From positions 192,809 through 256,808 of the forward strand of contig CAWGXL010000011.1 in assembly GCA_963826535.1 (NCBI GenBank): a stretch of 64,000 bases of DNA. Reading direction: 5' to 3'. Of this stretch, positions 8,061 to 59,517 are shown one piece after another (within the stretch, counting starts at the first letter, position 1; each line of letters opens with the position of its first letter). The stretch comes from an uncultured bacterium (GTDB lineage Bacteria > Patescibacteriota > Microgenomatia > Levybacterales > UBA12049). A program made the translations under genes and the position numbers. The notes beneath the pieces are model-generated. The model ran no database searches. It was not told where the DNA came from and was given only the letters and a program-made list of their open reading frames with translations.

Positions 8061-8092
8061 TGCATTTCCTAAATTGAAGATTTAAAAGGAGG

Positions 8093-9373: not shown

Positions 9374-9425
9374 TTATAAATAAAATTATGTTGGGCATTT
9401 TAGCGTAATGTAACTTGTTATGAAA

Positions 9426-10319: not shown

Positions 10320-10592
10320 TATTTCCTCCTTTTATACTTAGTGTTTTGTATTTTTTTCATATTGATTTAATTTAATTCAAATACTCCAGTACGAATATAA
10401 AAGTGTCCAGTAAATCCTGCGCAACTTGAACAGAGTTCTTATACAAAAAATCATTTTTGAAATGATAGTATTGGACAATAAGAGATTATACACTAAAGTA
10501 TACGCAGGCACAACTTTTATAAGCTTTACTATCTTAATGATAAAATTAAAATGATATAAACTAATACTGTTTGAAAATATTGGAAAAATTAG

Positions 10593-11246
10593 CTAAATAT
10601 TATTTAACACTGAGAAGGCTTTTTCAATATATTTTGTTTCCATTACAATTGTTAATTCGGTAAAGGTTGATATTATTTCGACAAAACTTATTTTTTCCCA
10701 TATTAATACCTTAAGAATTGAATAATATATTCCAACCATTTTTGTAGCGTCCGGGTGTATGCCAATCGTCAGGGAGGAAAGATTATTAAGGCTTGCTGAA
10801 ATAACTTCTTTTTTAAATATTTTTTTAATATCATTTTCGCAATTCACGCTTGCTATTATTGTTATCTGACTAACGCCGTGAGATACGGTTAGAAAAAGAT
10901 CTTTTCTTGCAGCAAATTTTTCAAGGAATTTATTTTGAGCACTTACAATAGTTGGAGAGTTGAGAAATGTGTAATCAACAAGATTTGAACGAAGAGTAAT
11001 ATCGCTCAAGTATTTGGAGAGGATTATATTACTGGGCAATTGTTTTTTTAACCTGAGAGTTGCTCTTTTCAATGCCATAATTATTGCGCCAGTCTTGATA
11101 TCTTTGAAGAGCTTTTTTTCAGCTTCAGGTTTAAGTAACCGCGCAAGAGAAGAATAATTAACAATATTACTGGTCAGCGCTGTTTCCAGTGAAGGCGTTT
11201 GTTTTATCAATTCATCCACTACTTGTGCTGTAGAAATCATGTTCAA
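10593..11246 (-). CDS. Hypothetical protein, possibly an ACT-like regulatory domain protein
   Basis: ORF only. Divergent from dapB. No confident motif. Confidence 0.25.
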   Translation of the reverse strand: MNMISTAQVVDELIKQTPSLETALTSNIVNYSSLARLLKPEAEKKLFKDIKTGAIIMALKRATLRLKKQLPSNIILSKYLSDITLRSNLVDYTFLNSPTIVSAQNKFLEKFAARKDLFLTVSHGVSQITIIASVNCENDIKKIFKKEVISASLNNLSSLTIGIHPDATKMVGIYYSILKVLIWEKISFVEIISTFTELTIVMETKYIEKAFSVLNNI

Positions 11247-17093: not shown

Positions 17094-17096
17094 GTA

Positions 17097-17223
17097 AATT
17101 CAAAATCCAAAGCACCAAATTCCAAATAAATTCTAATATCAAAATTCCAAATTAGAAACGTTTTGGATTTTGTTATTTGTATTTTGATATTATTTAGGAT
17201 TTGTAATTTTGGATTTGTAATTT
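17097..17223. repeat. AT-rich extended palindromic intergenic element, copy 1, abutting the dinB start codon
   Basis: A-rich left arm (AAAATCCAAA...), central AAACGTTT, T-rich right arm with tandem GGATTTGTAATTT x2. About 80% identical to 32361-32490. Confidence 0.45.
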
Positions 17224-32360: not shown

Positions 32361-32490
32361 AAACTCAAAATTCAAAGCACCAAATCACAAATAATATCAA
32401 AATTCAAATTTCCAAAATTCAAAACGTTTTGAATTTATTGCTTTGAACATTTGAATTTATTTGGGATTTGTAATTTTGAATTTGTAATTT
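32361..32490. repeat. AT-rich extended palindromic intergenic element, copy 2, abutting the glnA start on the opposite strand and upstream of the UbiA gene
   Basis: AAAATTCAAAACGTTTTGAATTT core. Tandem GATTTGTAATTTTGAATTTGTAATTT. Aligned with 17097-17223. Paired changes tccaaa/tttgga to ttcaaa/tttgaa. Confidence 0.45.
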
Positions 32491-32645
32491 ATTTTTGGGG
32501 ACTTCGATGTCACCGAATTTTAGTGAGGACTTCTTTGTCTTCTTGTCTTCGTAATGAAGATAATGATATTAAAGCACATTAATATTGCTGTGTCAATAAT
32601 TATAAACAAGACTTATGCTACAATTTCTTTATAGAAAAACTGCGT

Positions 32646-35395: not shown

Positions 35396-36106
35396 CTAAC
35401 TATGGGATAGTATCATATCCCCCACTTGTATGTCAAGAGGGGTGGCAATAAGCAAACCTGCTTCATGGCCTTTTTCAACCTTGGAAACCGGATTCTTGCC
35501 TACCCGGAGGGAGCCGATTGACGCTTCGCCCAGCACAGATTCCCCACGCATGATACGAATTCTGTCTCCACGCGCCACCCTTCCGGCGTTAACTTGAACC
35601 CCAAAAGCCACGGTTTTCTCAAAGGGAAATTTGGCAAGTACTTTGGCTTTACCAAAAATTTGTTCCATTTGAGCCTGTAATTTCCCCTCAAGCGCGTCTT
35701 TTATTTCGTCAAGCATCTCATAGATAATTGAATAGTTACGCAGAAGTACTTTTTCAGTCATGGCTAGCTTGAGGATTTCCGGACGTATTTTGGTATTAAA
35801 ACTCAGGACAATACTACCGGTTGATTTGGCGAGCAAAACATCAGCTTCAGATACTTCGCCGGTTTTCTGCATAATAATCTTTATTTTTTTAGGTAGCGCA
35901 TAACAGATCGCTTCGAGTGATCCTTTGGTGTCGGCCGCAAGGATTACAGAAAGGGTTATTTCTTCATCTTTTTTTTGATATACCGATTCTCTTTTTAGGG
36001 GTTGCGCCTGTGCCTGAGAAGCCTGGACTAAAGCTGTATTGGATTTTGAACTAATTATACTTCCAACAGCCGGAACATTCTTCGAGACCGAGTATTTCAA
36101 CCGCAT
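35396..36106 (-). CDS. infB: Translation initiation factor IF-2, C-terminal half (domains C1-C2). Separated from the G-domain half by a frameshift.
   Basis: SVILAADTKGSLEAICYAL matches IF-2 (VNIVLKADVQGSVEAI). NVPAVGS follows the EILGL motif of IF-2 domain II. Confidence 0.7.
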   Translation of the reverse strand: MRLKYSVSKNVPAVGSIISSKSNTALVQASQAQAQPLKRESVYQKKDEEITLSVILAADTKGSLEAICYALPKKIKIIMQKTGEVSEADVLLAKSTGSIVLSFNTKIRPEILKLAMTEKVLLRNYSIIYEMLDEIKDALEGKLQAQMEQIFGKAKVLAKFPFEKTVAFGVQVNAGRVARGDRIRIMRGESVLGEASIGSLRVGKNPVSKVEKGHEAGLLIATPLDIQVGDMILSHS

Positions 36107-36884
36107 CTCCGACTGTACTTTCTTTTAGTTGTTGGCCGCGGTCATTTATAATTGTACGAATTTTGCCGCTAATTGCATCTGTTTGAATTTCGTCTCTGAT
36201 TTTTATAGTTCCGTTTTTAATAACAATTGTTGCCCTAGGTCCGACCCGGGGATCAAGCCTGCTTTCAATAACAATTGCCTTCAACTGTCCATTTGCGGAT
36301 ATTTTATTCTCCTCAACAACGGGCGCATGCATATCAAATACTAACAATATAAGATCGAGAAGCTCTTTGATATTGGAATTTGTTTTCGCTGAAACAGCGA
36401 TTGCAGGAATTTCGCCACCGTATTCTTCCAGGGTTATTTGCTCTTTTAGAAGTTCCTGCTTAACTTTATCTAAATTTTTGGTGGCTAAATCTGCTTTGGT
36501 GATCACAACAATAAATCGGGTGTTGGTGCCTCTAAGTAGTTCTATACTCTCTTTTGTTTGTGGTTTCAGTCCTTCATTTGAGGCTACGACTAACAGTGCG
36601 AGGTCAGCAACCTGAGCTCCCCTACCGCGCATATGCGAGAAAGCTTCATGGCCTGGGGTATCAATAAAAGTGACTGAACGTTTATGGCCTTCATGAATTA
36701 TATCTATTGATGATGCTCCAATTTTTTGAGTGATCCCACCGACCTCGCGTTCGGCGATTGATGTTTTTCTAATCGCGTCAAGGAGGGTAGTCTTGCCATG
36801 ATCAACATGACCAAGTACGGCTACAACCGGCGGAAATTGAAGCCCAGAAGCTTTGACCTGTTTAACGTCTTTTGTTTTTGCCAT
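36051..36884 (-). CDS. infB: Translation initiation factor IF-2, N-terminal G-domain half. Ends at a stop created by an apparent frameshift.
   Basis: PPVVAVLGHVDHGKTTLLDAIR (G1). DTPGHEAF (G3). NKADL-like TKADL (G4). Ends GDAVEILGLEECSGCWKYN*. Confidence 0.75.
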   Translation of the reverse strand: MAKTKDVKQVKASGLQFPPVVAVLGHVDHGKTTLLDAIRKTSIAEREVGGITQKIGASSIDIIHEGHKRSVTFIDTPGHEAFSHMRGRGAQVADLALLVVASNEGLKPQTKESIELLRGTNTRFIVVITKADLATKNLDKVKQELLKEQITLEEYGGEIPAIAVSAKTNSNIKELLDLILLVFDMHAPVVEENKISANGQLKAIVIESRLDPRVGPRATIVIKNGTIKIRDEIQTDAISGKIRTIINDRGQQLKESTVGDAVEILGLEECSGCWKYN

Positions 36885-45388: not shown

Positions 45389-46348
45389 ATGAAATCTTTT
45401 TGGAAAAAATTACCGCGGCCGTTTACCGCGCTTGCACCCTTGGACGGGGTGACTGATGCAGTATTTCGTCAGATGGTGACGGAAATTGGCAAGCCGGATG
45501 TGCTTTTTACAGAATTTACTGCTTGCGGGGGTTTGGTGTCAGAGGGAAGAAGTCATGCGGCTCGGAATCTGTTGTTTAAGCCTAACGAGCAGCCGATTGT
45601 CGCGCAGATCTGGGGAACGGAGCCCTCGGACTTTCTTACTGTTGCGCAGGATTTAAGGGCGCGAGGATTTGCGGGGATTGATATTAATATGGGTTGTCCT
45701 GTGCGCGCAATTATTAAGGATGGTTCGTGTTCGGCGCTTATGAAGAATACTAAGCTTGCAGGTGAGATTATTCAGGCCACTAAAAAGGGGGCAAAAGACG
45801 TACCTGTGAGCGTGAAGACGCGAATAGGTTTTGATAAAACTAATATAAAGGAGTGGATCGGATTTCTCTTAAAACAGGATTTGGCGGCTTTGACTGTGCA
45901 TCTGCGGACTGTGGCGGAGATGTCCAAATTTCCTGCGCATTGGGAGTTGATGCCTGAGATTGTCTCAATGCGCAACGAATTGGCGCCTCAGACTTTGATC
46001 ATTGGGAACGGTGATATTGTTGTGCTTTCTGAGGTGGAGGAGAAGTTTAAAAAATACGGATGCGAGGGAATTATGATCGGGCGGGGAATTTTTGCCAATC
46101 CTTGGATATTTAATAGACCGGTGGATATGAAAGAGAAGACTGAAAAAGCGCGGGTTGCGTTGTTTTTGCGTCACATTGAGCTTTTTGAAAAAGAGTGGAA
46201 GGGGCGGCGGAAATTTGATCCGCTTAAGAAATTTGCGAAGGTGTATTTAAGTAATTTCGATGGGGCAGCTGACTTGAGGATGGAGCTTATGAAAGCTAAG
46301 AGTCTTGAGGAGATGAAACTTACGCTTAAAGATTATAAAACTTCTTAA
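45389..46348 (+). CDS. dus: tRNA-dihydrouridine synthase. Start at internal ATG 45389; the track starts at 45335.
   Basis: LAPLDGVTDAVFRQM, IDINMGCPV and the catalytic Cys region of the Dus family. Confidence 0.8.
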   Translation: MKSFWKKLPRPFTALAPLDGVTDAVFRQMVTEIGKPDVLFTEFTACGGLVSEGRSHAARNLLFKPNEQPIVAQIWGTEPSDFLTVAQDLRARGFAGIDINMGCPVRAIIKDGSCSALMKNTKLAGEIIQATKKGAKDVPVSVKTRIGFDKTNIKEWIGFLLKQDLAALTVHLRTVAEMSKFPAHWELMPEIVSMRNELAPQTLIIGNGDIVVLSEVEEKFKKYGCEGIMIGRGIFANPWIFNRPVDMKEKTEKARVALFLRHIELFEKEWKGRRKFDPLKKFAKVYLSNFDGAADLRMELMKAKSLEEMKLTLKDYKTS

Positions 46349-47345: not shown

Positions 47346-48032
47346 CTAAAAAGGGATAGTGGGGTCTGTTCCGGGAGAATTATTTACAAAATGATTTCTG
47401 TAAATGCACAATTTGCAGGCTTCTGAAGGGATGGGTAATGGGCCATTTAATACTTCTGAAATTGATTTAATTAAAGTATAAAAACTTTGCATATTTTCTT
47501 CTATCGGATGCCAGGTTGGTTTAGCGGTAAAGAGTATTTTTCCATCTACGAGTTCCATTTGTTCAGGGTTTATACTGACTACTCCCATTCTTGAGATTTT
47601 AATTGGAGGCTTTCCATTATTGGGATTCTCGAGGGCATATTTGTAAGCATGGAGTTGAGATGCGTATTTTTGAATTTTTTCTTCGTCGGGTGTGGTGATT
47701 TTGAAATCAATGACTGTATAACTTCCGTCGTCCAACTTTGTGAGTATATCAAATCGGCCTGAGACAAAACAATCTTTTGTTCCCGGTATAGGGAGTGATT
47801 TTATAAATCCTTCTTGTATTTCTATGAGTCCTGATGGAAGAGTTGGATGGACATCTTTAAGATTCTTACCCATGATCGAGTTTTGAAGGAGACCGTTTAT
47901 TCTTCCAAACATAGAGGGGAATATACCGCTGGAGGAAATACCAAATTTTACTTTTTGATAATAGCAATGTTTACATTCTTCCCAAAGGTAGGAAAAATCA
48001 GAAGGGCTTAATTTATATAATTTAGGATTCAT
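47346..48032 (-). CDS. PD-(D/E)xK nuclease of the Cas4/RecB-like clade with a 4-Cys cluster
   Basis: N-terminal LSPSDFSYLWEECKHCYY (Cas4 S-x-S...C motif). GRFDIL ... VIDFKIT (D...D/ExK). QLHAYKYAL (QxxxY). C-terminal CKLC. Confidence 0.5.
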   Translation of the reverse strand: MNPKLYKLSPSDFSYLWEECKHCYYQKVKFGISSSGIFPSMFGRINGLLQNSIMGKNLKDVHPTLPSGLIEIQEGFIKSLPIPGTKDCFVSGRFDILTKLDDGSYTVIDFKITTPDEEKIQKYASQLHAYKYALENPNNGKPPIKISRMGVVSINPEQMELVDGKILFTAKPTWHPIEENMQSFYTLIKSISEVLNGPLPIPSEACKLCIYRNHFVNNSPGTDPTIPF

Positions 48033-48128
48033 ACTTAACAGTAACTACTGCAGAGATTATTATACTATAAGTTGTGGAGAAAAGCTAATTCCAGAGTTTT
48101 TGGAGTTGGGAGAGGGTTTGCTTCAGTC

Positions 48129-48247
48129 CTGGCAGGGTGAGTCTTTTTGGTTTTAATCAGATGCAGGTGATTGTAAGTGGGGAGTATTCTGAGTGCAATA
48201 AAGCGATTACGATTGACAATCAATCCAATATACAACTGCTCAGGTAA
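48129..48247. repeat. About 120-bp direct repeat, copy 1, upstream (minus-strand sense) of the Cas4-like nuclease gene
   Basis: GGTGAGTCTTTTTGGTTTTAATCAGATGCAGGTGATTGTAAGTGG ... GCGATTACGATTGACAATCAATCC. About 90% identical to 49093-49213 with small non-triplet indels. Confidence 0.6.
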
Positions 48248-48322
48248 CCACAGCAAGTATATTGGGAATATAAAGCTACCAAGCTAATTCAAGTCGAAGG
48301 TTGTAATTTAAGCGGCATTATT

Positions 48323-48832
48323 TTATATAATACCCTTACTTTTTAATTCTTGAAACATTGTTATCGATCTTTCAACACCCGACATCTTAAGAGCTTCAAT
48401 ATCTTTACCTTCTTTTAATTCTTTTATAGCTATATAAGCAAAATTTTGGGTCACTCTGGGTTCCATTTTTTTAGTAACGAGAAGCGTTTTGACTTGCCCA
48501 TCATCTTTATAAAATTTTCCATTTAAAACATCCAGTATGGTCTTAGCCATATTGTCTACATCTCGCGATTTATAGTCTTTTTGTGATACGAAATACTGAA
48601 CTATAAAAACAAAAACCTCTTTGTCTGTAGGAAATTGCTTTGTGTGTTTTAAGTCGCTTTCTACTCTTTGAAGAAAAGTTTGTCTGAATGTCCCCAAGCC
48701 GCTTTTTTCATCTTTTCTTCTTGCCTCAGAAAAATTGTCCTTTTTAAAGGCTTCTTGAGTTGAAGGAATAATCATATCAATGCCGATATCAAAATCTACA
48801 GAAGTTTTAATATTTGCATTTTTCCTCGCCAT
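48323..48832 (-). CDS. RusA-like Holliday-junction resolvase (phage-type)
   Basis: SRDVDNMAKTILDVLNGKFYKDDGQV parallels E. coli RusA [27 protein letters not shown]. Confidence 0.5.
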   Translation of the reverse strand: MARKNANIKTSVDFDIGIDMIIPSTQEAFKKDNFSEARRKDEKSGLGTFRQTFLQRVESDLKHTKQFPTDKEVFVFIVQYFVSQKDYKSRDVDNMAKTILDVLNGKFYKDDGQVKTLLVTKKMEPRVTQNFAYIAIKELKEGKDIEALKMSGVERSITMFQELKSKGII

Positions 48833-48842
48833 TGGGGATATT

Positions 48843-49007
48843 TCAGGCTGTAATAAATGTGTAGAGCCTTACGCCTGTTTTGGTATTTTCTCTTTCTACT
48901 TTCTTTTCGGGTATTTCTTTACCTTCTTTTGTATAGAATGAAACTTTTGCCGGATTGTTTTTGTATTTTGTAGCTATAAAATAAACTTCTTTTTTTAACT
49001 TTTTCAT
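48843..49007 (-). CDS. Small hypothetical protein (54 aa) upstream of the RusA-like gene
   Basis: ORF below the track cut-off: MKKLKKEVYFIATKYKNNPAKVSFYTKEGKEIPEKKVERENTKTGVRLYTFITA. Confidence 0.2.
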   Translation of the reverse strand: MKKLKKEVYFIATKYKNNPAKVSFYTKEGKEIPEKKVERENTKTGVRLYTFITA

Positions 49008-49092
49008 AGTGTAGTTTATAGTATATAAGTATTTAGATAAAAATCAAGGCCTCTTACTGTTTTCAAACAAAATTTCGATGGTGCAGTTGTGT

Positions 49093-49213
49093 CTGGCAGC
49101 AGGGGTGAGTCTTTTTGGTTTTAATCAGATGCAGGTGATTGTAAGTGGAGTATTCTGCGTGCAATAAAGCGATTACGATTGATAATCAATCCAACATCCA
49201 ACTGCTAAGGTAA
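49093..49213. repeat. About 120-bp direct repeat, copy 2, between the hsdR 3' end and the small ORF/RusA cassette
   Basis: See copy 1. Contains the small hairpin GATTGA-TAA-TCAATC. Confidence 0.6.
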
Positions 49214-49312
49214 GTTCAACAAGTAAATATAGAATTATTTTATAAAGAAGAAAAGGTGCGAAGCTATTTCAGATGGATGGTGCAGTTATTTTAAATATTC
49301 GTTTTAATAATT

Positions 49313-52300
49313 TTATGCACCAACAAAGCTTGTTGAATCATGATAGTGCTCATAAACAAAGTTATATATTTCTACTCCTTTACTATCACAGTCTTGTTTT
49401 GAATAAGTCGGTTCAGGTAGTGAATCATATAGAATATCAGAAATTGTTGTTTTAACTCCTGCGCGAGCTATCTCTTTTTCTCTCCAATCAATGACAAGCT
49501 TTTCATGTTTAAGTTTTGCTAAAAGATCTTTTGCAATCTTTTTTACTTTTTCTCGCTCATCAGGATTCAAGTTATCCTTTTGTAGAAGATCAAAAATTGC
49601 GAGTTCCTCTTCAGTCAAATTTTCTTTTACTGCTCTTTGTTCTTCTTCGCTTAACTCTTTCGCAAGTTCAACGAGGTCATCGAAAAGCTGATCGATATCA
49701 TGAGCTCCGGTGTTATACACATTTAGCATTGCCAAAAGTCTGTCCATGAACTTTGCACGTATTTTATTTTTTTTCATCATATCGATAATCTTTTTTTCCA
49801 GATCATCTCTTAGTGCCTCAACTTGTAAGTTTTTATTTTCAATCTTGTAAAAGAATTCATGTAAAGCATCGACATCGAGTGCGCTTAAATCCTTGAGTCT
49901 TTTATAATGTGGGACAACGTATTCACCAGCTCTAATTGACTTATCCAATAATAATTCCAAGTCTCTTTTTACCGGTGAAGTATCAATACTTCGAGCGCCA
50001 ACGTCTCTTATGCGCGAAGCAATTATACGAATTGCGGTTACCTCATTGTAATAATCTTCTGCTGAAGGATCAGGTAAAACAGATTTGTAGGCAGAATAAA
50101 GGTCTGCTGACAGGTTTAAAAATTCATTCTTTCTTTTTTGATCCACTAAAATTTGGTTGGCGTATTTATCGATAAGCAATAATTTCTGTTCATTAGGTGA
50201 TTTAAGCAAAACTTCAATATCTATTTTTAATCCTTTAAGCATTTCTTTAGTTTGCTTTAAAATATTTAACAAATCTTTCAAAAGCTCATCTTTACTTTTG
50301 ATTATTTCATCGTCTCCTGACTTGGTCGCAGCATAAAGGGCTAATGCTTTTTCAACGTTCTTAAAGACTCCAATATAATCAACTATCATGCCGTTTGTTT
50401 TCCCTTCGGATACCCGATTTGCTCTCGCAATTGCTTGCATCAAGGTATGATTTTTTAAAGGCTTGTCAAGATAAAGTGTTGAAAGCGTCGGGACATCAAA
50501 ACCGGTTAGCCACATTGCGCAAACAAATACAATTTTTAGATTGCTATCATCTTTCTTGAATTCTTCTTCAAGGTTTTCATTCTGTATTCGAGCTCGAAGC
50601 GGTCTCATTTCTATTTCAAACGGTTCAAGATCAGCAATTTCATTCTGTGATTGACTTACGACGACAGCCATATCTATTTTTTCAAGTTTTTCAATTTCTT
50701 CACGAATTTTCTCTTGCTCAAAATCATTCTCTGCTCTTGATAAATCCAACCGCAATTTAGCTAAATGCCTATCCCATTCAGCTTTTACTTTTGTATACAT
50801 ACGCACTGTTGTTTTTTTATCGATTGAGACGACCATTGCTTTTCCCTGATAACCCCGTCCGACAAAATGCTGCACAATATCCCTTGCTATCGCATTTAAT
50901 CTGTCTTCACGGGTTATCAAATGATAGAAAGTTGAAAATTCCTGTTCTACCTTTTCCTCTTCCTCATCGTTCATTTCGTAGTAATTCATTATTTTGCCAA
51001 GTTCTACTTCAAGCTGTGGGTTGATATTCTCAAGTTTGGCTACGCGATTTTCATAATATAAAGGAACCGTTGACCCATCTTTTACTGATTGACCAAAATT
51101 ATATACGGACACATATTCTCCAAAAGTACTCTTTGTTTTTTCTTCACCACGACTTAAAAGTGGAGTTCCTGTAAAACCAATAAATGAAGCATTTGGTAGT
51201 GCTTTTCTCATGTTCTGGGCGTAAGTATCGTATTGGCTTCTATGAGCCTCATCCGTCATAACAATAACATCATCCCGATCTGACACCGCTCCTGGGATAT
51301 CCTGAAACTTCTGAATAGTCGTAAAAATTTGTCTGTGATCCTCTTTTAGTAATAATTTTAAATCTTTAATTGAATCAGCCCTTACATGTTTTTCATAAAC
51401 TGCACCCACGTTGGCAAAATTTTTATATGCTTGGCCATCGAGTTGTTCGCGATCAGTAACAATAATAAAAGTAAAATTCCCAGGAATTTTTCTGAATACT
51501 TTTTGTGAGAGATAAACCATAGCAAAAGATTTTCCAGATCCCTGTGTATGCCAAAAAACTCCAAGTTTTCCGTTGAGTTCTTTTCTCTTTATAACTCTTT
51601 CAAATGCACGATTGACTCCGTAGTACTGAAAATACCTGGGAACTATTTTTTTAGTTTCTCCAAGTGATTCATCATAAAGAATAAAGTTTTCAAATATATC
51701 AAGAAGTCTTTTTTTGTCACAAATTCCTTTGACAAGAGTAGCTAAATCTTTTTTTGTCTCATCTTTTTCAGATTCAACTTTTTTCCACTCGTTAAAATAT
51801 TCAAAAGGGGATGTTAGGGAACCAAATTTATTCTCAATGCCATTGGAAATTACGATTCCCATGTTGTACCAGAAGAGGTGTGGAATGGTGTCTTTATAAT
51901 CCCGGATATTGTCTTTATACGCATCTACCAAACTTTTATGAGAGGCTTTTAGCTCTAATAGAAGGAGGGGAATACCATTAACAAAAAGAACTACATCTGT
52001 TCGTCTCGTGTACATCTCGCCCACCACCCATAGCTGGGAAACACAAAGAAAATTATTGTTTTCAGGGATTTCAAAATCAAAAAACTTCACATTCTCAATT
52101 TTTGAATTTCCATCTTGTGTTTTTATGTTTACGCTGAATCCATCTTTTAATAGTTTGTAGACTTCTTGGTTGGCTTTAACTAAAGTTGTATTTGATCTGT
52201 CTCTGGTTATCTCAGCAACTGACTGTTGCAAGGCTTTTTCAGGTAATGATGGGTTTATTTTGGTTAGAGCAGGGAGTAAATACTTTTTGAGGATTACTTC

Positions 52301-52438
52301 GCCGCGGTGTTCCCGGCCAAACTTTGCGTCTTCCGCGTCTATAAAAGCATTTATATGACAGGTTTCATCAGTCCACGCTTCTTTAATGAGTTTTATGACT
52401 GTTTGTTCAACTAAATTGTCTTCGCTAAATTGATTCAT
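49313..52438 (-). CDS. hsdR: Type I restriction enzyme R subunit
   Basis: HsdR N-terminal domain. Walker A HTQGSGKS. DEAH (MTDEAHRSQY). Helicase motifs throughout. 1041 aa. Confidence 0.9.
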   Translation of the reverse strand: MNQFSEDNLVEQTVIKLIKEAWTDETCHINAFIDAEDAKFGREHRGEVILKKYLLPALTKINPSLPEKALQQSVAEITRDRSNTTLVKANQEVYKLLKDGFSVNIKTQDGNSKIENVKFFDFEIPENNNFLCVSQLWVVGEMYTRRTDVVLFVNGIPLLLLELKASHKSLVDAYKDNIRDYKDTIPHLFWYNMGIVISNGIENKFGSLTSPFEYFNEWKKVESEKDETKKDLATLVKGICDKKRLLDIFENFILYDESLGETKKIVPRYFQYYGVNRAFERVIKRKELNGKLGVFWHTQGSGKSFAMVYLSQKVFRKIPGNFTFIIVTDREQLDGQAYKNFANVGAVYEKHVRADSIKDLKLLLKEDHRQIFTTIQKFQDIPGAVSDRDDVIVMTDEAHRSQYDTYAQNMRKALPNASFIGFTGTPLLSRGEEKTKSTFGEYVSVYNFGQSVKDGSTVPLYYENRVAKLENINPQLEVELGKIMNYYEMNDEEEEKVEQEFSTFYHLITREDRLNAIARDIVQHFVGRGYQGKAMVVSIDKKTTVRMYTKVKAEWDRHLAKLRLDLSRAENDFEQEKIREEIEKLEKIDMAVVVSQSQNEIADLEPFEIEMRPLRARIQNENLEEEFKKDDSNLKIVFVCAMWLTGFDVPTLSTLYLDKPLKNHTLMQAIARANRVSEGKTNGMIVDYIGVFKNVEKALALYAATKSGDDEIIKSKDELLKDLLNILKQTKEMLKGLKIDIEVLLKSPNEQKLLLIDKYANQILVDQKRKNEFLNLSADLYSAYKSVLPDPSAEDYYNEVTAIRIIASRIRDVGARSIDTSPVKRDLELLLDKSIRAGEYVVPHYKRLKDLSALDVDALHEFFYKIENKNLQVEALRDDLEKKIIDMMKKNKIRAKFMDRLLAMLNVYNTGAHDIDQLFDDLVELAKELSEEEQRAVKENLTEEELAIFDLLQKDNLNPDEREKVKKIAKDLLAKLKHEKLVIDWREKEIARAGVKTTISDILYDSLPEPTYSKQDCDSKGVEIYNFVYEHYHDSTSFVGA

Positions 52439-53957
52439 TTTCTGATATTTCTGGTAGGTACTTTTTCAATACGTCCACCATGGAATTCTTTTTATCGCCT
52501 GAGGTCAAAAAAGATAAAATTAGATTTTGATAGCCATTTTTAGCTAGCTCAAGATCAGTTTGAATTTCTTTTACAAGTCCTTTGTGAGGATAAGATTTTA
52601 ATATTTCAACTATATCTGCGTCATCTGAAGGTAGGTTAATTTTCTCCATTTCAGTATCCATCTCCGAAATAATACTTTTTTTGAAAGATTCGTAATCAGT
52701 CTTAGATTTCAAGGCTCCAAATTTTTCATCAAAAAGCCTATTTATTCTATACTTTGAAGCACTAAATAAAACTTCGTCCTTTCGTTGTTTGTATATACTT
52801 TTTATTTTTTCAGTCACCTGTGCTTTCTTATCGGTTTTTGACAAATGTTGAAGCACAAAATCAATGAACTCTGGAACCAGGAATATATTCTCAATTTCAT
52901 TTAAAGCAATGTTAAAAATAGATTCGGATTTTAAAGACTCTAGTTGGTTATCTGATCTAAAATCTCTATCTATTAAACCAAACACTTTTTTGTCGTGCAG
53001 AGATGTATTATTTCTAAGTCCTTTGACTGATTCGATAACTTTTTCACCCGAACCTCTGGCAATTACTGTGAAATTTTCGTAGTAAATCTGGTAAATTTGA
53101 GAATCAAGCGAACCTTTGTCACCCTCTACGAATAAAATTGGCTTCCTGCTTCCAAGAATCTCAAGGAAAAGTTCATCCGGGATAATTCCATTTTGGTCAA
53201 CTTCTTTCCACTCCCATGTGTTTTCTTTAAATGATTGAACCCATATGACTTTGCTGGCGGGTTTACTTACAGCAAAATCTAAATCGTGTGTTATGTAAAC
53301 AAATGAACAATCACTCCGGAATTCTTCAAGTTTGTTCCATAACCGTACCATTAACGCTTTATGTAAATGCAATTCGGGCTCATCAATTATCAGAATGCAG
53401 TTATCTTCAGCTAAGACGGTCTGAGATATTAAATACAAACCCACTTTTTCCCCATCACTCATTTCAGCTCCAGAATATTCGTTATTATCGCTTACCGCTC
53501 GAATACGATCTTTTTCCAACTTTAGCGGCCTGTAAGGGAAAATAAAATTCCAAACCTCCAAAACTTTTTCCTTAACGGAAACTGGTGTATCTTCTTTAGT
53601 AATACTGCCATTTAGATTTATGCTTTTAATTACCTCCTCATTTCTTGTTGCTTCTTGAGCAAATAACGAGATTAAGACTTGTTGATAATCATTTTGAGGC
53701 TCTACTGGGGGATGATTTTTATAACTGCTTCTTAATTGAGTATTTGCCGTCTCATAATCTTGCCTTTGTACTACCTCAGACAATTGTAAATATCTTTGGG
53801 CGGATATTCGTTTTGTAGGGTTGTTAATCTGTTCAAGCTTAGAGCCCAACCTGGTTTTCCCAGCCCCGTTTGCCCCAACTATTACTATGTTTTTTTCAAA
53901 TTCGAAAGATTCCACGACTGAGGATACGCCAGATTTAGGAAATTGAATAGTTTTCAT
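52425..53957 (-). CDS. ABC-type ATPase (AAA_15/21-like) fused to a C-terminal TOPRIM (DUF4435/OLD-like) domain, inserted between hsdS and hsdR
   Basis: Walker A VGANGAGKT. Walker B/D-loop ILIIDEPELHLH. C-terminal LFVEGDKGSLDS and FGLIDRDFRSD (TOPRIM Glu and DxD). Overlaps hsdR by 14 nt and hsdS by 4 nt. Confidence 0.6.
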   Translation of the reverse strand: MKTIQFPKSGVSSVVESFEFEKNIVIVGANGAGKTRLGSKLEQINNPTKRISAQRYLQLSEVVQRQDYETANTQLRSSYKNHPPVEPQNDYQQVLISLFAQEATRNEEVIKSINLNGSITKEDTPVSVKEKVLEVWNFIFPYRPLKLEKDRIRAVSDNNEYSGAEMSDGEKVGLYLISQTVLAEDNCILIIDEPELHLHKALMVRLWNKLEEFRSDCSFVYITHDLDFAVSKPASKVIWVQSFKENTWEWKEVDQNGIIPDELFLEILGSRKPILFVEGDKGSLDSQIYQIYYENFTVIARGSGEKVIESVKGLRNNTSLHDKKVFGLIDRDFRSDNQLESLKSESIFNIALNEIENIFLVPEFIDFVLQHLSKTDKKAQVTEKIKSIYKQRKDEVLFSASKYRINRLFDEKFGALKSKTDYESFKKSIISEMDTEMEKINLPSDDADIVEILKSYPHKGLVKEIQTDLELAKNGYQNLILSFLTSGDKKNSMVDVLKKYLPEISENESI

Positions 53958-55096
53958 GATTTTAATTCCCTCATTCCTGTCACAAGCTGAGGGATAAGTA
54001 TATCACAAATTTTTTCCAGGCTATAACTCTGTGCTTCAAGGTTATCTCGTAAATTGAAAATTTTTTGGACATTTATAGTAAATTGATTAAGTAGGCTGTT
54101 AGGCGGAACTATTATCTTTTTACCATATACATAGCTTCTATTAAGCCCTGGTACTGCTGCGTCTCCGGCAATATAACTTTGAGATTTTAAAAGATAATAA
54201 ATGAATTCTAAGTTCAAAGATGATTTAACATAATAAGTGGTGTCAATTGGATAAAAGTCATTTTTAACCCAAAATACAGAGCCTATATTGCCCTTTCTGC
54301 CTATTACAATTCCCGGTCCCGGAACAAATTTTTCGTTATGAAAACCAACTCTACCACTAGAACCATATACAGAAATATTTCCGTTAACTCTTGAGTCTTC
54401 TTTTAATGCTTTTCCATATGCAAGCTCTAATATATCACTGAGCTTCTTAACTTCCCACCCTTCTGGTATTTTGCCTAGAAGAGAATCGATCATTTTTACA
54501 TTTTCATGCCCGGGGAAATTGAATTTTATGAACCATTCTGTATAAAGCGTTTGTGCCATTTCCTCCAAAATCTTTATCCGCTTTTCGTTGTTTTCAATTA
54601 AATCGTTGTAGGCAGAAAGGACAGAAGAAATTTGAACTTGGGTTTTCAGATCAGGTAGATTTATAATTATATTTCTTAAATCTTCGAGTCTAATACCTGT
54701 AACTGTTGACCCATTCCCTATGTTTTGTAACTTAATTCCTGAATAAATTAAAGTCCAAAGTAAAAAATCATTATTAATTTTCTCATTAGGGTAAACTGCT
54801 TTTAAATCTTGATTTATTGCAGTACCAATTGTTGTTTTTACTACACGTCCCAATCCCATCCTAGTTGGCATTACTATGGTTCCAGCACTGACGAAATTTG
54901 AGGCACTATTATCTAAACCTTCTTGAGTAATATAATCTTGAGTTGAATCTAAATAATATCTGCCGTCTTCAAAGTCTTTAACACTTGCCCAAGGAATTGC
55001 ACCTCCCCAATATTGTAGATTACTTTTTGATGGAGTCCCCCCTCCTACAACCTTCTCTAACACATCTCCTAATTTTTGTTTTGTCCAAGTTGTCAT
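53954..55096 (-). CDS. hsdS: Type I restriction-modification specificity subunit (two target-recognition domains)
   Basis: N-terminal WTKQKLGDVLEKVVGGGTPSKSNLQYWGGAIPWASVKDF and a repeated central/C-terminal conserved region. 380 aa. Confidence 0.8.
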   Translation of the reverse strand: MTTWTKQKLGDVLEKVVGGGTPSKSNLQYWGGAIPWASVKDFEDGRYYLDSTQDYITQEGLDNSASNFVSAGTIVMPTRMGLGRVVKTTIGTAINQDLKAVYPNEKINNDFLLWTLIYSGIKLQNIGNGSTVTGIRLEDLRNIIINLPDLKTQVQISSVLSAYNDLIENNEKRIKILEEMAQTLYTEWFIKFNFPGHENVKMIDSLLGKIPEGWEVKKLSDILELAYGKALKEDSRVNGNISVYGSSGRVGFHNEKFVPGPGIVIGRKGNIGSVFWVKNDFYPIDTTYYVKSSLNLEFIYYLLKSQSYIAGDAAVPGLNRSYVYGKKIIVPPNSLLNQFTINVQKIFNLRDNLEAQSYSLEKICDILIPQLVTGMRELKS

Positions 55097-55098
55097 TG

Positions 55099-56094
55099 TT
55101 ATTTTTTCTTCAAATATTTTTTTACTTCTTTGTCAAAGTCGGAGAAGTATTTTTTGTCTTCATCTTTTCGATATTTTTCATACTCGTTATGAGCTATGGT
55201 TTCTGCTTTTTTGGCGCTGATTGATCCTGCGTCTTTTAGTATTTGTTTTTCGCTTAATTTCAAAAATTTATCGAGCTTAGACACCCAATCACTCATTTTC
55301 ATCAATCTGGCATTTGTTGCTTGTAGCTCGGCAAAGTCTAAATAAAGCGACACAATCAAATTTAATTGTTTGATTTCCGGTTCTGAGAGATAATTTTTGG
55401 CGATTGTTGTATCTGAGGCATGGATCTTTGATCCTTTGAAACTTGTTAAACCCATGTTTGGTTGTTTGCTATTGGCTCTTGTCGCGATAACTTCGGCGGC
55501 TGTGTGTCCATGGACTGCGTAGTGCATTTTATTTTGCACAGTTGCAAAAAATTCTTGAGTTAACTTATTATCTTTGCTGTAATCAATACTTGTGGCGTAT
55601 ATATCAGTGACTTTTTGATAAAAGTTTCGCTCACTGGCTCGAATATCCCGTATGCGCTCCAGAAGTTCATCGAAATAGGATGCTTTTCTGCCACCTTCTT
55701 TAAGACGCTCGTCATCAAGCGTAAAGCCTTTGACTATATATTCCCGGAGTCTTTGTGTGGCCCAAATACGAAATTGAGTGCCGCGAATTGATTTAACACG
55801 ATAGCCCACGGAAATAATTACATCGAGATTGTAGTATTCAACAGAACGCTTTTTCTCAACACCACCTTCTGTTTGAACTGTCAAGTAATCCTTGACAGTT
55901 GATTCTCTTGATAATTCAGCTTCTTTATAAATATTATTGACATGGAGACTAATGTTTTGTTTTGTGGTTTCAAATAGCTCAGTCATTTGAGCCTGGTTTA
56001 ACCAGGCTGTTTCGCCTTCAAAACGTACATCAACTTTTGTTTTACCGTCTGGTGTTTGGTAGAGAATAATCTCTGATTTATTTTTGCTTGTCAT
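55099..56094 (-). CDS. RhuM-family (virulence_RhuM) protein embedded in the type I R-M operon
   Basis: YQTPDGKTKVDVRFEGETAWLNQAQMTELF is the hallmark N-terminus of RhuM-family proteins. The hsdM-hsdS slot is the usual genomic position for this family. Confidence 0.7.
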   Translation of the reverse strand: MTSKNKSEIILYQTPDGKTKVDVRFEGETAWLNQAQMTELFETTKQNISLHVNNIYKEAELSRESTVKDYLTVQTEGGVEKKRSVEYYNLDVIISVGYRVKSIRGTQFRIWATQRLREYIVKGFTLDDERLKEGGRKASYFDELLERIRDIRASERNFYQKVTDIYATSIDYSKDNKLTQEFFATVQNKMHYAVHGHTAAEVIATRANSKQPNMGLTSFKGSKIHASDTTIAKNYLSEPEIKQLNLIVSLYLDFAELQATNARLMKMSDWVSKLDKFLKLSEKQILKDAGSISAKKAETIAHNEYEKYRKDEDKKYFSDFDKEVKKYLKKK

Positions 56095-56143
56095 AGTTAC
56101 CTTTCTTATTTTACTTTTCAGGCCAAAAGTATAATATGGATTT

Positions 56144-57721
56144 CTATATTATAGTTTTCCAATCTTCTTCAATTTTCTTTTCTAAGCTGTGTGCCTCTTT
56201 TGTGAGAGTTTTGAATTCCGATGTTAGTTCGTTCATTCGTGCTTCAAATTCCACATTATCCATTTCTTTCTCAACTATTTCGATATATCTTCCAGGATTT
56301 AAGGAATAATCATTTTCTTTTATTTCATCAAGGGTGGCAGCTTTGCAACGGCCTTTTATGTCTTCATATTTTCCGTATCCTTCCTCACCACGATATCGCC
56401 TGACAATTCCTGCGATTTCCTGTATTTGTTCATCGCTCCAGTTGTTATGTGCGCGATCTACTGGGGTAAAGATATTTTGTGTGTTGATAAACAATATTTT
56501 ATTTTGTCTATCTGTTCCTTTTTTACCTTTGTCCAAAAACCATAATGTGGAAGAAAGTGTTACATTTAGAAACATATTGGGCGGTGTTGAAATAATCACA
56601 TCAACAAAATTTTTCTCAATAAGTTTTTTTCTAATCTCCTTCTCAGCATGTCCAGCATCAGTTGCGGAGTTGGCCATGACAAAACCAGATCTACCATTAG
56701 AATTTAAGGCGCTCGCAAAGATTTGCATCCAAAGGTAGTTTGCATTTGTAATGTTGCCTTGTTGGGTAGTAGGAAGTCCAAGAAAATAACGTGGATCGCG
56801 GTGTAAGCGCTCTGGATCAATAATTACTTGACCATTCTCGTCAACACCAGCAACATTAAATGGTGGATTAGCTAGAACAAAATCAAATTTACCGATACTG
56901 TTGTGTGCGTCTTCATAATATGAGTTTGCCGGAAGAATCTTTCCTGATAGACCATGAATTGCTAAATTCATTTTGGCAATTTTAATTGTTGCGTCTTTAG
57001 ACTCTTGACCATAAATTGTTACTTGATCCATTACTTTGGATTTATTTTTTAAATGTTCTTCGACAAACTTAGCTGAATGAACGAACATTCCACCGCTTCC
57101 ACAAGCCGGATCAAAGATCCGGCCATGGTATGGCTCTATAACTTCAACCAAAAGCTTAACTATAGATTGAGCTGTAAAAAATTCTCCACCATTTTTCCCT
57201 TCTGCAAGAGCAAAATTTCCTAAAAAATATTCATAGATCTCTCCAAACGCATCTCCTTCAATGTCTTCTGGAATCTGATTAAAATTTTTAAGAAGAGTAA
57301 TAAGGATCCTATTATTTTCATCTGCTTTTTGCGAGAGAAGTGAGTAATTTTGAGGCAGAACACCAGCGAGATCTCTGTTATATTCTTCAATTGACTTCAT
57401 TGCTTCGTTAATTGCTTTGCCTATGTTTTCATTTTCTGGAAGGCTGATTAGATGTGAATATGTGGCTTTTTCTGGTACATATAATACGCCTCTAGCTTTG
57501 TAGTCTTCTGGAGAGACTGGTCGCTGTCTGGTTGACTGTGAAGAAATTCTATCTTTCCCTATTTTTACTTTGACTTTTTTAAATCGTACATCGGCAAATT
57601 TAAGAAAAATGAGTCCTAGAATTGGAGCAGAAATTTCATTTAAATTTAGCCCACTATTGGCACGCATTTGCTCAGCCGATGCCCACAGTTGATCTTGAAG
57701 TTGCTTTTTTTGTGCAGTCAT
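56144..57721 (-). CDS. hsdM: Type I restriction-modification N6-adenine DNA methyltransferase subunit
   Basis: HsdM N-terminal domain. Motif I DPACGSGGMF. Motif IV VLANPPFN. Confidence 0.9.
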   Translation of the reverse strand: MTAQKKQLQDQLWASAEQMRANSGLNLNEISAPILGLIFLKFADVRFKKVKVKIGKDRISSQSTRQRPVSPEDYKARGVLYVPEKATYSHLISLPENENIGKAINEAMKSIEEYNRDLAGVLPQNYSLLSQKADENNRILITLLKNFNQIPEDIEGDAFGEIYEYFLGNFALAEGKNGGEFFTAQSIVKLLVEVIEPYHGRIFDPACGSGGMFVHSAKFVEEHLKNKSKVMDQVTIYGQESKDATIKIAKMNLAIHGLSGKILPANSYYEDAHNSIGKFDFVLANPPFNVAGVDENGQVIIDPERLHRDPRYFLGLPTTQQGNITNANYLWMQIFASALNSNGRSGFVMANSATDAGHAEKEIRKKLIEKNFVDVIISTPPNMFLNVTLSSTLWFLDKGKKGTDRQNKILFINTQNIFTPVDRAHNNWSDEQIQEIAGIVRRYRGEEGYGKYEDIKGRCKAATLDEIKENDYSLNPGRYIEIVEKEMDNVEFEARMNELTSEFKTLTKEAHSLEKKIEEDWKTII

Positions 57722-57807
57722 ATATTATTCCCTTATTAACTTAAAACTGATCCTTATTATAACCGGTATTGGGATGTTTTGCGAGTTGATGTAATGATGG
57801 GTGTATC

Positions 57808-57912
57808 ACTTTGGAATATAGCTGGTAAAAATTTCTGAGCAGCTGTAGGCGTGGCAGACGATGCAGCTGTAATTGTAGTCTGCTAGTATTGCGTCGCGGT
57901 GGATTTTGTCGG
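57808..57912. repeat. About 104-bp direct repeat, copy 1: a duplicated 3' fragment of the CAP-domain gene, 35 codons plus stop
   Basis: Reverse-strand translation DKIHRDAILADYNYSCIVCHAYSCSEIFTSYIPK* versus the real C-terminus DKIHRDAILADYTYSCIACHAHNCSEIFTSYIPK*. About 90% nucleotide identity with 58629-58732. Confidence 0.6.
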
Positions 57913-58033: not shown

Positions 58034-58330
58034 ATGAGCACAGCAACAACTATCACATTTTCAATTGATCCGGCACTTAAGAAGAGAGCAAAAGAAAAAG
58101 TTGAGAAACTAGGCTTTAGTCTTGATTTACTTGTTGGTTCTTTTGTTGATAAATTACTTACAGTAGTCGCGGATAAAGAAAATGCTGACGCAGAAATAGT
58201 TCTTCATTTAGAAAAACCAAATGAGTATTTTAAACGGGCTATCAAAAAATCCAGAGGTGATAGAAAAGCGGGAAAAGCATCCCCCACCTTTGAAAAAGCT
58301 GAAGATGCGATTGAGTGGCTACATAAATGA
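58034..58330 (+). CDS. RelB/DinJ-family antitoxin
   Basis: ITFSIDPALKKRAKEKVEKLGFSLDLLVGSFVDKL resembles the DinJ N-terminus (RHH-like). A RelE-type toxin remnant lies immediately downstream. Confidence 0.5.
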   Translation: MSTATTITFSIDPALKKRAKEKVEKLGFSLDLLVGSFVDKLLTVVADKENADAEIVLHLEKPNEYFKRAIKKSRGDRKAGKASPTFEKAEDAIEWLHK

Positions 58331-58336
58331 GCCATT

Positions 58337-58618
58337 ATGAAAGTTAAATTTAGCCCGGAGTTATCCGCAAGGCAGTTGATGAGAAAATAAAAATCTTCCA
58401 AAAAGATCCACAGAATTCAGATTTACATAATCATGAACTTCGTGATGAGTATAAAGGACTACGGAGTATTAATATTACCAATGACTATCGAGCAATCTAT
58501 GAGGAAATAAAAGAAAGGAAAGACACGATAACAGCGTACTTTTCTTTACTTGGAACACATAAAGAGCTCTACGAAGTAAAGAGATTTAGAGTCAGAGTAA
58601 GGTTTAAAAGACAATAAA
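58337..58618 (+). pseudogene. RelE/YafQ-family toxin gene disrupted by a frameshift
   Basis: Frame 1 gives MKVKFSPELSARQLMRK*. From 58372 another frame gives AVDEKIKIFQKDPQNSDLHNHELRDEYKGLRSINITNDYRAIYEEIKERKDTITAYFSLLGTHKELYEVKRFRVRVRFKRQ*, the RelE/YafQ core pattern. Confidence 0.5.
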
Positions 58619-58626
58619 TAACTATA

Positions 58627-59517
58627 TTACTTTGGAATATAGCTGGTGAAAATCTCTGAGCAGTTGTGGGCGTGGCAGGCGATGCAGCTGTAGGTGTAGT
58701 CTGCTAAGATTGCGTCGCGGTGGATTTTGTCGTTGATCCACCAATTAAATGCGTGTTGCTCGGTTGTAAAATTGATTATGTTTTCATTAACGTAATAAGG
58801 CAGATTCATTGCTCTTAAGCCTGAGTGCATGGCGCTGTTACCGTAGATTTCATTGTAAACCTCAGGGGCTCTGTTTTGGGCGATGGCACAGACTGCTTCG
58901 TCTTTTTTAAAGGGGGGTAGATCAAAAGTGCTTCTATAATTATTGACCATAGCAAACAATTCATTTGCGTTAAGCCCGTTCACAGGCGCTGCTTGCTTAG
59001 TAATAGTCGGAATTGGAAAAGGAGTTGGGGTGGGCGTACTGGTAGGTTTGGGGGCTTGCCCCGATTGAACTTTGATTTTTTCACTGGGTTTTGCGGTTAC
59101 AATCGGGGTATCGGGGGAGCCCGGGGTGGGCGTAGACGTTGGTTTTAATGTCGGCTTGGGCGCTCGCTCCGATTTTATCGGGGTTAAAGTCCCTGCTGTT
59201 GGGAGGTTTGAAGTGGGTATTAAAATTTTATCTTCTGCAGGTGCACGATGTACTGATGAAAGGATATTGGGGGCCTGCCCCGATTTTATCGAGGTTGGGT
59301 ATAAGGTAATATTCTTTAGTTCCTTTTCGAGTGCCAAAACTTCCATTTCCATTTTTTGAAGCTCGGGGTCGTGGCCTGATTTAAGCGGAGCCGGAGTAGA
59401 TTTAATAACAACTTTCTTAATAATTGCTGAGTTACTTTTGTTAATTGGCAGCCCCGGAATAATACTTGAGGTAAAAGTACTCGCCATTAAGAAAAATGAA
59501 GTCAAAAGCTCAAACAT
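58627..59517 (-). CDS. Secreted CAP/SCP (YkwD-like) domain protein with a Pro/Thr-rich linker
   Basis: Signal peptide. PTSTPTPTPFPIPT linker. C-terminal NYRSTFDLPP ... WINDKIHRDAIL ... YSCIACH parallels the YkwD/CAP motifs (WMNSPGHRANIL). Confidence 0.55.
   Translation of the reverse strand: MFELLTSFFLMASTFTSSIIPGLPINKSNSAIIKKVVIKSTPAPLKSGHDPELQKMEMEVLALEKELKNITLYPTSIKSGQAPNILSSVHRAPAEDKILIPTSNLPTAGTLTPIKSERAPKPTLKPTSTPTPGSPDTPIVTAKPSEKIKVQSGQAPKPTSTPTPTPFPIPTITKQAAPVNGLNANELFAMVNNYRSTFDLPPFKKDEAVCAIAQNRAPEVYNEIYGNSAMHSGLRAMNLPYYVNENIINFTTEQHAFNWWINDKIHRDAILADYTYSCIACHAHNCSEIFTSYIPK
58629..58732. repeat. About 104-bp direct repeat, copy 2 (the functional 3' end of the CAP-domain gene)
   Basis: See 57808-57912. 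Together the copies bracket the DinJ-RelE(pseudo) cassette. Confidence 0.6.

Follow-up and report, generated by a model that had tools for sequence, protein, structure and literature searches.

The stretch of DNA analysed here (the window) comprises 64 kb from an ultra-small bacterium of the candidate phyla radiation (CPR/Patescibacteria), and it includes a variable defence-island hotspot in which two direct repeats, R1 (48129-48262) and R2 (49093-49228), bracket a two-gene cassette made of a small open reading frame (ORF) and a gene of the RusA resolvase family. Judged by its sequence, R is a protein-coding relic: the duplicated 3′ end of a broken gene, here called Y, together with the spacer behind it. 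R1 and R2 are probably recombination scars, i.e., duplicated Y-tail flanks left between two cargo modules that were accreted sequentially at the hotspot. The scar is att-like in its layout and of an ordinary kind, yet it recurs unusually often around the RusA cassette.

The two repeats are direct copies with about 91% identity. BLAST aligned them over 128 nucleotides (nt) at 90.6% identity (E=4e-46), with no third copy in the 64 kb; the search for repeats covered the window and the 17 kb retrieved of L115, a syntenic relative described below. A first-pass annotation of this DNA had reported direct repeats of about 120 bp and about 90% identity at this place, with indels of 4 and 2 nt, and both the repeats and the indels are real. 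The longest perfect block, of 46 nt, lies at 48135-48180 and 49103-49148; this 46-mer is counted twice in the window and 0 times in 100 dinucleotide shuffles. It is followed by the 2-nt indel (GTGGGGAG versus GTGGAG) and then by about 85 nt at 85-92% identity, while the 4-nt indel falls at the left (junction) edge. The block is compatible with a crossover segment, and at 8% divergence such a length is not unusual (p ~0.2, our own estimate). Homology of low identity extends further to the right, to ~48329 and ~49297, reaching the stop codons of RusA and hsdR (p=0.008 versus shuffles), and a three-way alignment showed that L115 has this extension in common with both copies. In R1 the extension (48263-48329, + strand) would be the native spacer from the Y stop to a convergent stop, and it abuts or overlaps the RusA stop codon at 48323-48325; in R2 (49229-49312, + strand) it would be the native spacer from the Y stop to the hsdR stop codon, as the alignments including L115 indicate.

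The repeats had been annotated as noncoding, on the argument that the indels exclude a protein, and neither statement stands. On the + strand, both copies encode the C-terminal peptide …EYS(E/A)CNKAITIDNQSNIQLLR, which ends at the same stop (TAA at 48245-48247 in R1 and at 49211-49213 in R2). The 2-nt indel is a frameshift in R2, a deletion near 49148 that leaves an in-frame tail at 49145-49213, and the 4-nt indel is at the edge of the junction. R1 still has an open ORF at 48137-48247: no stop interrupts the frame from 48089 to its end, and a GTG at 48137 might serve as a start. Past the 2-nt indel, on its right side, the copies differ at 48192, 48217, 48229, 48232 and 48241, and from 48248 onwards they differ densely. 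Four of these five in-frame substitutions are synonymous third positions (p about 0.02), and the identity drops sharply directly past the shared stop. Because the frame and stop are shared, the differences are biased to synonymous sites and identity is lost after the stop, we take the repeat to be a coding relic. A conserved hairpin, GATTGA-NNN-TCAATC, had also been pointed out; it is found in both copies, with the 6-bp stem kept and a single substitution in the loop, though it sits within the coding frame (T-I-D-N-Q-S).

Protein homology adds to this. A search with the R1 peptide gave P0241 as the sole match, a protein of 71 amino acids with 86% identity in the C-terminal half (E=1.6e-10). 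An exhaustive HMMER search added P0244 (212 amino acids, from another genome), the last 73 residues of which align with the whole of P0241; the remaining HMMER matches to the peptide were to beta-solenoid-like internal repeats and were uninformative. R is accordingly found to have a common open frame, a synonymous bias and a protein homologue that ends at the same stop, and the high-identity core of R1 (48129-48262, + strand), recovered by repeat scans, BLAST, frame and the matches to P0241 and L115, would represent the last ~37 codons of Y. The core of R2 (49093-49228, + strand) would be the same 3′ relic in a frameshifted form.

P0241, the product of Y, is encoded on L115, a 104-kb contig that is collinear with the window, with nucleotide identities of 95% for EF-G, 83% for dus, 69% for BrnT/CopG and 88% for the CAP-domain gene. 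The Y tail of L115 is 90.5% identical to R1 (7347-7451) and 89.8% identical to R2 (7344-7451). From dus, which points right, the order in L115 runs to CopG (leftward), Y (rightward, 7240-7455) and hsdR (leftward, 7604-10618), followed by hsdS and hsdM. Comparison with an uninterrupted locus had been suggested in the first-pass annotation, and L115 comes close to such a locus: Y is single-copy there and directly convergent with hsdR, one Y tail faces hsdR, and neither the RusA cassette nor the PD-(D/E)xK nuclease gene that lies on the other side of R1 in the window was found in the 17 kb. Homology of L115, R2 and R1 begins ~10 nt before GGTGAGTC, crosses the stop and becomes patchy in the spacer. 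L115 retains Y codons 1-33, which match residues 139-171 of P0244, and the window has lost them; therefore the window state is the derived one. Homology between the window and L115 ends at 47017, ~22 nt short of the expected Y start, and does not return until the two Y tails. The interval from this break to R2 holds a 67-amino-acid ORF, the PD-(D/E)xK gene, a 54-nt relic of an HD-domain gene, R1 and the RusA cassette. On the other side, the hsdR proteins of L115 and the window are only 34% identical, despite flanks that are 88-95% identical in nucleotides, and therefore cargo has been exchanged between conserved flanks. Pfam scans gave nothing for the genes flanking Y in L125 or for the unnamed genes of L115. 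The type I restriction-modification (RM) operons that occupy the same position in the two contigs (49313-57721 in the window, 7604-15039 in L115) are non-orthologous.

The junctions at the outer ends of the two copies differ. R1 adjoins the HD relic (48085-48138, minus strand), which consists of the last 17 codons, TLPGLKQTLSQLQKLWN, plus the stop; it is 81% identical in nucleotides to L115 5915-5988, matches the C-terminus of an intact HD gene there (5933-6577), and supplies the upstream region of the PD-(D/E)xK gene. The join occurs across an overlap of ~11 nt (CTGGCAGGGTG) that resembles both parental sequences, which suggests a microhomology junction. R2 is preceded by a junction segment (49071-49096, + strand) containing the 17-mer ATTTCGATGGTGCAGTT, which recurs at 49266-49288. 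This segment is probably the Y relic continued upstream of R2, approximately codons 24-33, to judge from a weak similarity. A related motif, AATTTCGATGGNGCAGNTG, occurs at 46253-46271 in the 3′ coding region of dus, at 49071-49089 and, with a 5-nt insert, at 49266-49288; it is significant locally (p 0.001-0.002) and not window-wide (E 0.16). We considered and rejected two readings of these short matches, namely that the 17-mer flanking R2 is a target duplication or templated filler, since a prolonged Y relic explains the segment more simply, and that the resemblance to the dus 3′ end marks a dusA-type att site, since the match is not significant window-wide.

A history that would produce this arrangement is as follows. 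R1 and R2 would be two diverged copies of the ancestral Y end, each with the last ~37 codons, the stop and a spacer of ~80-100 nt, and the cargo hotspot would have the 3′ end of Y as its fixed flank. In L115 the single Y tail faces hsdR; in the window R2 would be the tail that faces hsdR and R1 the tail that faces the cassette. DNA from a related lineage, with the same flank beside different cargo, may have been brought in by homology-anchored recombination, either through a circular form that integrated by one Campbell-type crossover or with homology guiding the crossover at only one end and the other end joined illegitimately. Either route would leave both versions of the flank, and with either the order in which the RusA cassette and the RM operon arrived is undecidable. 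Y itself would have been destroyed in the window, with R1 joined to the 3′ relic of the HD gene and R2 frameshifted. The repeats need have no function of their own, and as a by-product the ~130 nt of homology could allow the cassette to be excised or swapped. The rival explanations that we weighed are, in decreasing order of likelihood, a trans-acting integrase, a RusA cassette that makes long target duplications, a regulatory element, a dispersed repeat and an assembly artefact.

Direct repeats that contain a gene 3′ end with its stop, arranged in tandem arrays, are the signature of integrase-mediated accretion, and integrase-less cis-mobilizable elements (CIMEs) occur among such islands. R1 and R2 could on this model be attL and attR, with a recombinase acting in trans (encoded elsewhere or by a helper) that inserts integrase-less, CIME-like cassettes into the 3′ end of Y and supplies a replacement end. 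The repeats do include a gene 3′ end and its stop, a 46-nt identical block is present, the relative has a single copy, and tandem arrays exist (three copies at locus L015). The first-pass annotation had proposed att-like insertion boundaries, and this much of the proposal is sound, in that the direct-repeat layout, the discreteness of the unit and the single copy in L115 all agree with it; no recombinase to go with it was found, however: Phage_integrase, Resolvase and transposase domains were absent from the cassette and from the ~49 window ORFs scanned. Moreover, the cassettes are only 0.7-1.1 kb, and across loci the repeats are unrelated, range from 22 to ~200 nt and have no core, which would require a new integrase specificity at nearly every locus. 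We regard a trans-acting recombinase as unlikely. An integron/attC reading was rejected, because the repeats derive from coding sequence and IntI is lacking.

The cassette itself is well delimited. Its main gene (48323-48832, minus strand) is predicted to encode a Holliday-junction resolvase of the RusA family, with 169 amino acids. Pfam PF05866 scored 40.1 bits against a gathering cutoff of 22.8, the invariant residues R90 D91 D93 N94 … D110 D111 (the RD.DN and DD motifs) are present, and an AlphaFold model with a predicted local distance difference test score (pLDDT) of 70 found E. coli RusA (2h8c/1q8r) as its best Foldseek matches in the PDB (probability 1.0, TM ~0.7 on target). When the RusA alignment was used as a profile against the PDB, it did not reach the RusA entries and gave only spurious helical-repeat matches; the subfamily here carries N- and C-terminal extensions. 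Upstream lies a conserved ORF of 54 amino acids (48843-49007, minus strand) which precedes RusA in essentially every homologous locus. Its product is basic, 54-59 residues long (…YFIATKYKNNPA.VSFYTK.G…), and is encoded from a few to ~50 nt upstream of RusA (loci L001-L114); tblastn found it in every locus but L026, where the RusA match is only partial, and neither a Pfam nor a PHROG family was found for it. The 5′ end of the cassette (49008-49070, minus strand) holds a promoter-like TTGATT-16-TATACT (49047-49020) and a leader. With L027 and L028, the closest cassettes, homology in nucleotides stops at 49067-49070, and with L027-L029 it spans only 49070 to 48323, the flanks not being common to them; therefore the cassette is a discrete unit. 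The gene assignments of the first-pass annotation (hsdR, the 54-amino-acid ORF, RusA as PF05866 and the nuclease as PF12705, all on the minus strand) hold.

That annotation had further suggested that these are phage-derived genes within a decayed prophage or satellite. RusA homologues number in the hundreds at 55-85% identity across CPR phyla, and the pair of small ORF and RusA is a conserved chromosomal two-gene module in ~109 CPR loci. We compared the cassette with 50,697 phage genomes (by blastn and tblastn), with IMG/VR and with PHROG. No member of the RusA subfamily was found in the phage genomes by tblastn, and blastn of the cassette against them was also blank; the full-length subfamily was not found in IMG/VR, where only partial matches to the catalytic core appeared, and the similarity to PHROG is remote and at family level only. 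A phage link can therefore be kept for the RusA superfamily as a whole but not for this subfamily, which had no match in those phage genomes, and with a conserved CPR module and no integrase found, the prophage or satellite interpretation is not supported.

A regulatory role for R was the other proposal made from the sequence, namely a shared promoter, leader, riboregulator or small RNA serving the two minus-strand genes. Each copy does lie just 5′ of a minus-strand gene, 85-97 nt upstream of the start codons at 49007 and 48032, and this position, the conserved 6-bp hairpin with its substitution in the loop, and a weak TTGCAC-17-TACAAT on the minus strand of R1 would favour such an element. 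No part of the window, however, reached an Rfam gathering threshold, a search of the locus relaxed to E<=10 yielded only noise, and ARAGORN gave no tRNA or tmRNA. The fold that had been suggested as a check was no more stable than expected, with z-scores of the minimum free energy at 0.0-0.4 on both strands of both copies, the same as for shuffles. When L115 was added, none of the 18 and 30 predicted pairs covaried (RNAalifold on R1, R2 and L115, a test of low power with 3 sequences only). A consensus scan found neither a sigma-70-like promoter nor an intrinsic terminator in the high-identity core, and both genes have promoter-like sites outside R, in the case of the PD-(D/E)xK gene a TATAAT box ~30 nt upstream of the start. 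The upstream position is not conserved, as none of the other RusA and PD-(D/E)xK loci examined had R, including contigs with RusA cassettes 79-85% identical in protein and the upstream regions of PD-(D/E)xK orthologues 74-80% identical. The pattern of substitutions is that of + strand codons, and the L115 counterpart is an ORF tail that lies upstream of neither gene. A regulatory element is very improbable.

Whether the scar is peculiar to this locus was judged from 24 genome loci and 80 metagenome loci with RusA cassettes. Among 84 non-redundant loci, a gene was counted as flanked when its repeats had a local score of at least 25, and other genes of up to 1.5 kb served as controls. RusA genes were flanked in 11 of 60 cases (18%) and the other genes in 9 of 221 (4%), an odds ratio of 5.3 (Fisher p=6e-4). 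Direct repeats around the cassette were found in L003, L023, the window and about a dozen metagenome loci, with ~80% of RusA cassettes having no flanking repeat. Five loci (the window, L052, L069, L107 and L113) share a layout in which the insert measures 720-763 nt, the downstream copy follows within 0-10 nt of the RusA stop, and 27-85 nt lie between the upstream copy and the start of the small ORF. The repeats are unrelated among loci, with lengths from 22 to ~200 nt and identities of 76-100%, and no 7- or 8-mer above shuffle level is common to 21 repeat families. The pieces duplicated include a TrmB-like 3′ end, the first 9 codons of a GT2 gene, a conserved region of hsdS and promoter-like intergenic DNA, and L107, L110, L023 and others show an architecture like that of the window. 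Other repeat-flanked units hold toxin-antitoxin (TA) pairs, RhuM, NUDIX, alcohol dehydrogenase and M48 peptidase genes.

These figures bring in a second rival, in which the small ORF and RusA form a mobile element and R1 and R2 are a long, variable target-site duplication made in situ. The enrichment at RusA genes, the placing of the downstream copy 0-10 nt past the RusA stop at five independent loci, the constant insert and the fact that all contexts differ speak for it. An in-situ copy, however, would decay neutrally. In L023, all 5 differences between the copies are synonymous and the stops are kept, as TAG and TGA; in L110 all 5 differences fall in one codon phase; the window likewise has synonymous differences and a kept stop. 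Such synonymous or phase-biased differences together with kept stops imply that the copies diverged as functional alleles before being joined, and the synonymous differences in L023 and R and the one-codon-phase differences in L110 led us to reject a pure in-situ target-site duplication. In addition, the range of lengths and identities is too variable for a stagger defined by a transposase, no terminal inverted repeats, conserved 5′ end or transposase was seen, most cassettes have no repeat, and TA, RhuM, NUDIX and alcohol dehydrogenase cargo shows the same architecture. We consider the in-situ duplication quite improbable.

A broader form of the idea deserves mention as a speculation, one that we hold to be doubtful but with some chance of being right: the small ORF and RusA may constitute a minimal, previously undescribed mobile cassette, within an integrase-independent movement of cassettes in CPR bacteria that duplicates 30-200 nt of the target. 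Its own RusA might then assist by resolving the recombination intermediate so that an insertion results, and such a route may move cassettes that run from promoter to stop codon, including RusA, TA pairs, RhuM and others. In the literature we found no description of a RusA-based mobile cassette, of cassette insertion with a long target-site duplication or of the CPR duplication pattern, which is weak evidence.

Three further loci carry repeats of related layout. In L015 the 3′ end of glyS (glycyl-tRNA synthetase) is present three times (3353-3429, 5753-5829 and 6540-6580), and the copies delimit successive pieces of small cargo, including the RusA module and a HicAB pair, in a clear case of tandem accretion. 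In L088 an intergenic element occurs three times (~3531-3571, 4738-4820 and 5537-5597), parting an alcohol-dehydrogenase gene and a gene of unknown function in an array that is integron-like, without attC features. In L005 a RhuM-family gene stands between two copies (5002-5060 and 6160-6218) of the opening 59 nt of a PD-(D/E)xK gene, with its start codon, and a premature stop closes the upstream one.

Several points count against the interpretation of R1 and R2 as duplicated flanks from sequential accretion. The enrichment of flanking repeats at RusA genes hints at a cassette-specific factor that a generic hotspot model leaves unexplained. There is no empty site from the same species, and L115 differs by more than one event, having no PD-(D/E)xK gene and a different RM system as well as no cassette, with the result that the order and number of events, like the mechanism of recombination, are inferred. 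The synonymous pattern comprises 5 substitutions, and the 36-amino-acid ORF in R1 could still be a functional small gene. Finally, the copy count of R is that of the 64-kb window, and further copies elsewhere in the genome are possible.

The copy number also bears on whether R is a dispersed repeat, like a miniature inverted-repeat transposable element or a repetitive extragenic palindrome, with two copies close together by chance. A size of ~130 nt would fit, and the 17-mer on both sides of R2 (49072-49088 and 49266-49288, local p=0.001) could be taken in its favour. The counts, however, are 2 in 64 kb and 1 in the 17 kb of L115, core 21- and 22-mers of R had 0 matches in collections of genomes, metagenomes and viruses, terminal inverted repeats were not seen, and a protein family has this sequence as its conserved C-terminus; such a repeat is highly improbable here. 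An assembly artefact, in which two strain variants of the locus were joined head to tail, is scarcely credible: the genome is of a metagenome type and ~8% divergence is plausible between strains, but the copies enclose a unique cassette of 760 nt and have distinct flanks (the HD relic and the hsdR spacer), and the same architecture is seen in independent assemblies that stem from other projects, L003, L023, L052, L069, L107 and L115.

The surroundings of the cassette are built along similar lines, the region at 47-59 kb being an array of cargo modules (PD-(D/E)xK, RusA cassette, type I RM and TA pair) parted by relics of gene 3′ ends. The Cas4-like PD-(D/E)xK nuclease gene (47346-48032, minus strand; PF12705) is widely conserved in Microgenomates-type CPR genomes, beside defence genes that differ from relative to relative. 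The neighbouring cargo module is the type I RM operon with hsdR (49313-52438, minus strand), a DUF4435/AAA ATPase gene (52425-53957), hsdS (53954-55096), RhuM (55099-56094) and hsdM (56144-57721); it is an operon in which the RhuM and DUF4435/AAA ATPase genes stand between hsdM/hsdS and hsdR. Beyond it lies a displaced 3′ end of the CAP-domain gene (58627-59517), comprising the last 35 codons and the stop (57804-57911, minus strand), so that the pair 57804-57911 and 58625-58732 forms 108-nt direct repeats with 91% identity. Between these copies is a TA-like cassette (58034-58620, + strand) with a RelB-like ORF (58034-58330) and a RelE-like toxin gene that is frameshifted near its start. In L115 the end of the CAP gene is also doubled (15151-15248 and 15911-16016), around a different TA pair, DUF5615/DUF433.

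Elsewhere in the window, an AT-rich intergenic repeat of ~130 nt occurs at 17096-17225 and 32361-32492, 15 kb apart and 76-91% identical; one copy extends to where a dinB-like gene begins (17224), and the other ends ~150 nt upstream of a UbiA-like gene (32646). A tandem 102-nt repeat (27709-27900; two 90-nt copies, 91% identical) lies within a large ORF (27675-30323). The gene for translation initiation factor IF-2 (35396-36884, minus strand) appears split into a GTPase ORF and a C-terminal ORF in different frames that overlap at 36051-36106; the gene could truly be divided, or the break could stem from a frameshift or from an error in sequencing.

For the hotspot, the outcome is a locus history that can be checked and that supersedes the reading of R as a riboregulator or prophage boundary; it also illustrates that a seemingly noncoding repeat can be what is left of a gene on the opposite strand. 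If duplication of flanks is as common in CPR bacteria as the ~100 sampled loci suggest, it would give a handle on how defence and repair genes are gained and swapped, and a simple sequence signature for locating cargo in tiny, integrase-poor genomes. The recurrence around RusA cassettes is the lead to follow, while the scar itself is ordinary.

Of the known systems, integron arrays resemble this one in having compact, ORF-trimmed cargo in a row with similar repeats between, and TA modules among the cargo; unlike attC palindromes, the repeats here are coding relics of local genes, IntI and attI are absent and the orientation is mixed. The attL and attR sites of genomic islands, CIMEs included, are also similar (for a general account of att sites, see PMC3191183), in that the direct repeats are the 3′ end of the target gene with its stop, a relative is single-copy and the cargo forms arrays. 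They differ in that the unit here and its surroundings yielded no integrase, the units measure 0.7-1.1 kb, the repeats are unrelated between loci, of variable length and without a core, and the target gene is itself a relic. In E. coli, the microcin H47 island is described in two papers as small, bounded by direct repeats and moving without a recombinase of its own (PMC3191183, PMC5426353). It shares with the RusA cassette the small cargo, the direct repeats, the lack of an encoded site-specific recombinase and the possibility of excision across the repeats; its repeats are called ‘short’ there, whereas those considered here are ~130-200 nt and ~8% diverged, in another organism and with putative mobility. 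A further parallel is homology-facilitated illegitimate recombination (HFIR), defined in PMC3240628 as homologous exchange at one end combined with illegitimate joining at the other, together with Campbell-type insertion-duplication. HFIR usually deletes recipient DNA, whereas a duplication is seen here. As in HFIR and Campbell insertion-duplication in transformable bacteria, there is a homology join on one side and a variable junction on the other, and the anchor is duplicated; such routes would account for anchor copies that resemble selected alleles rather than decaying duplicates.

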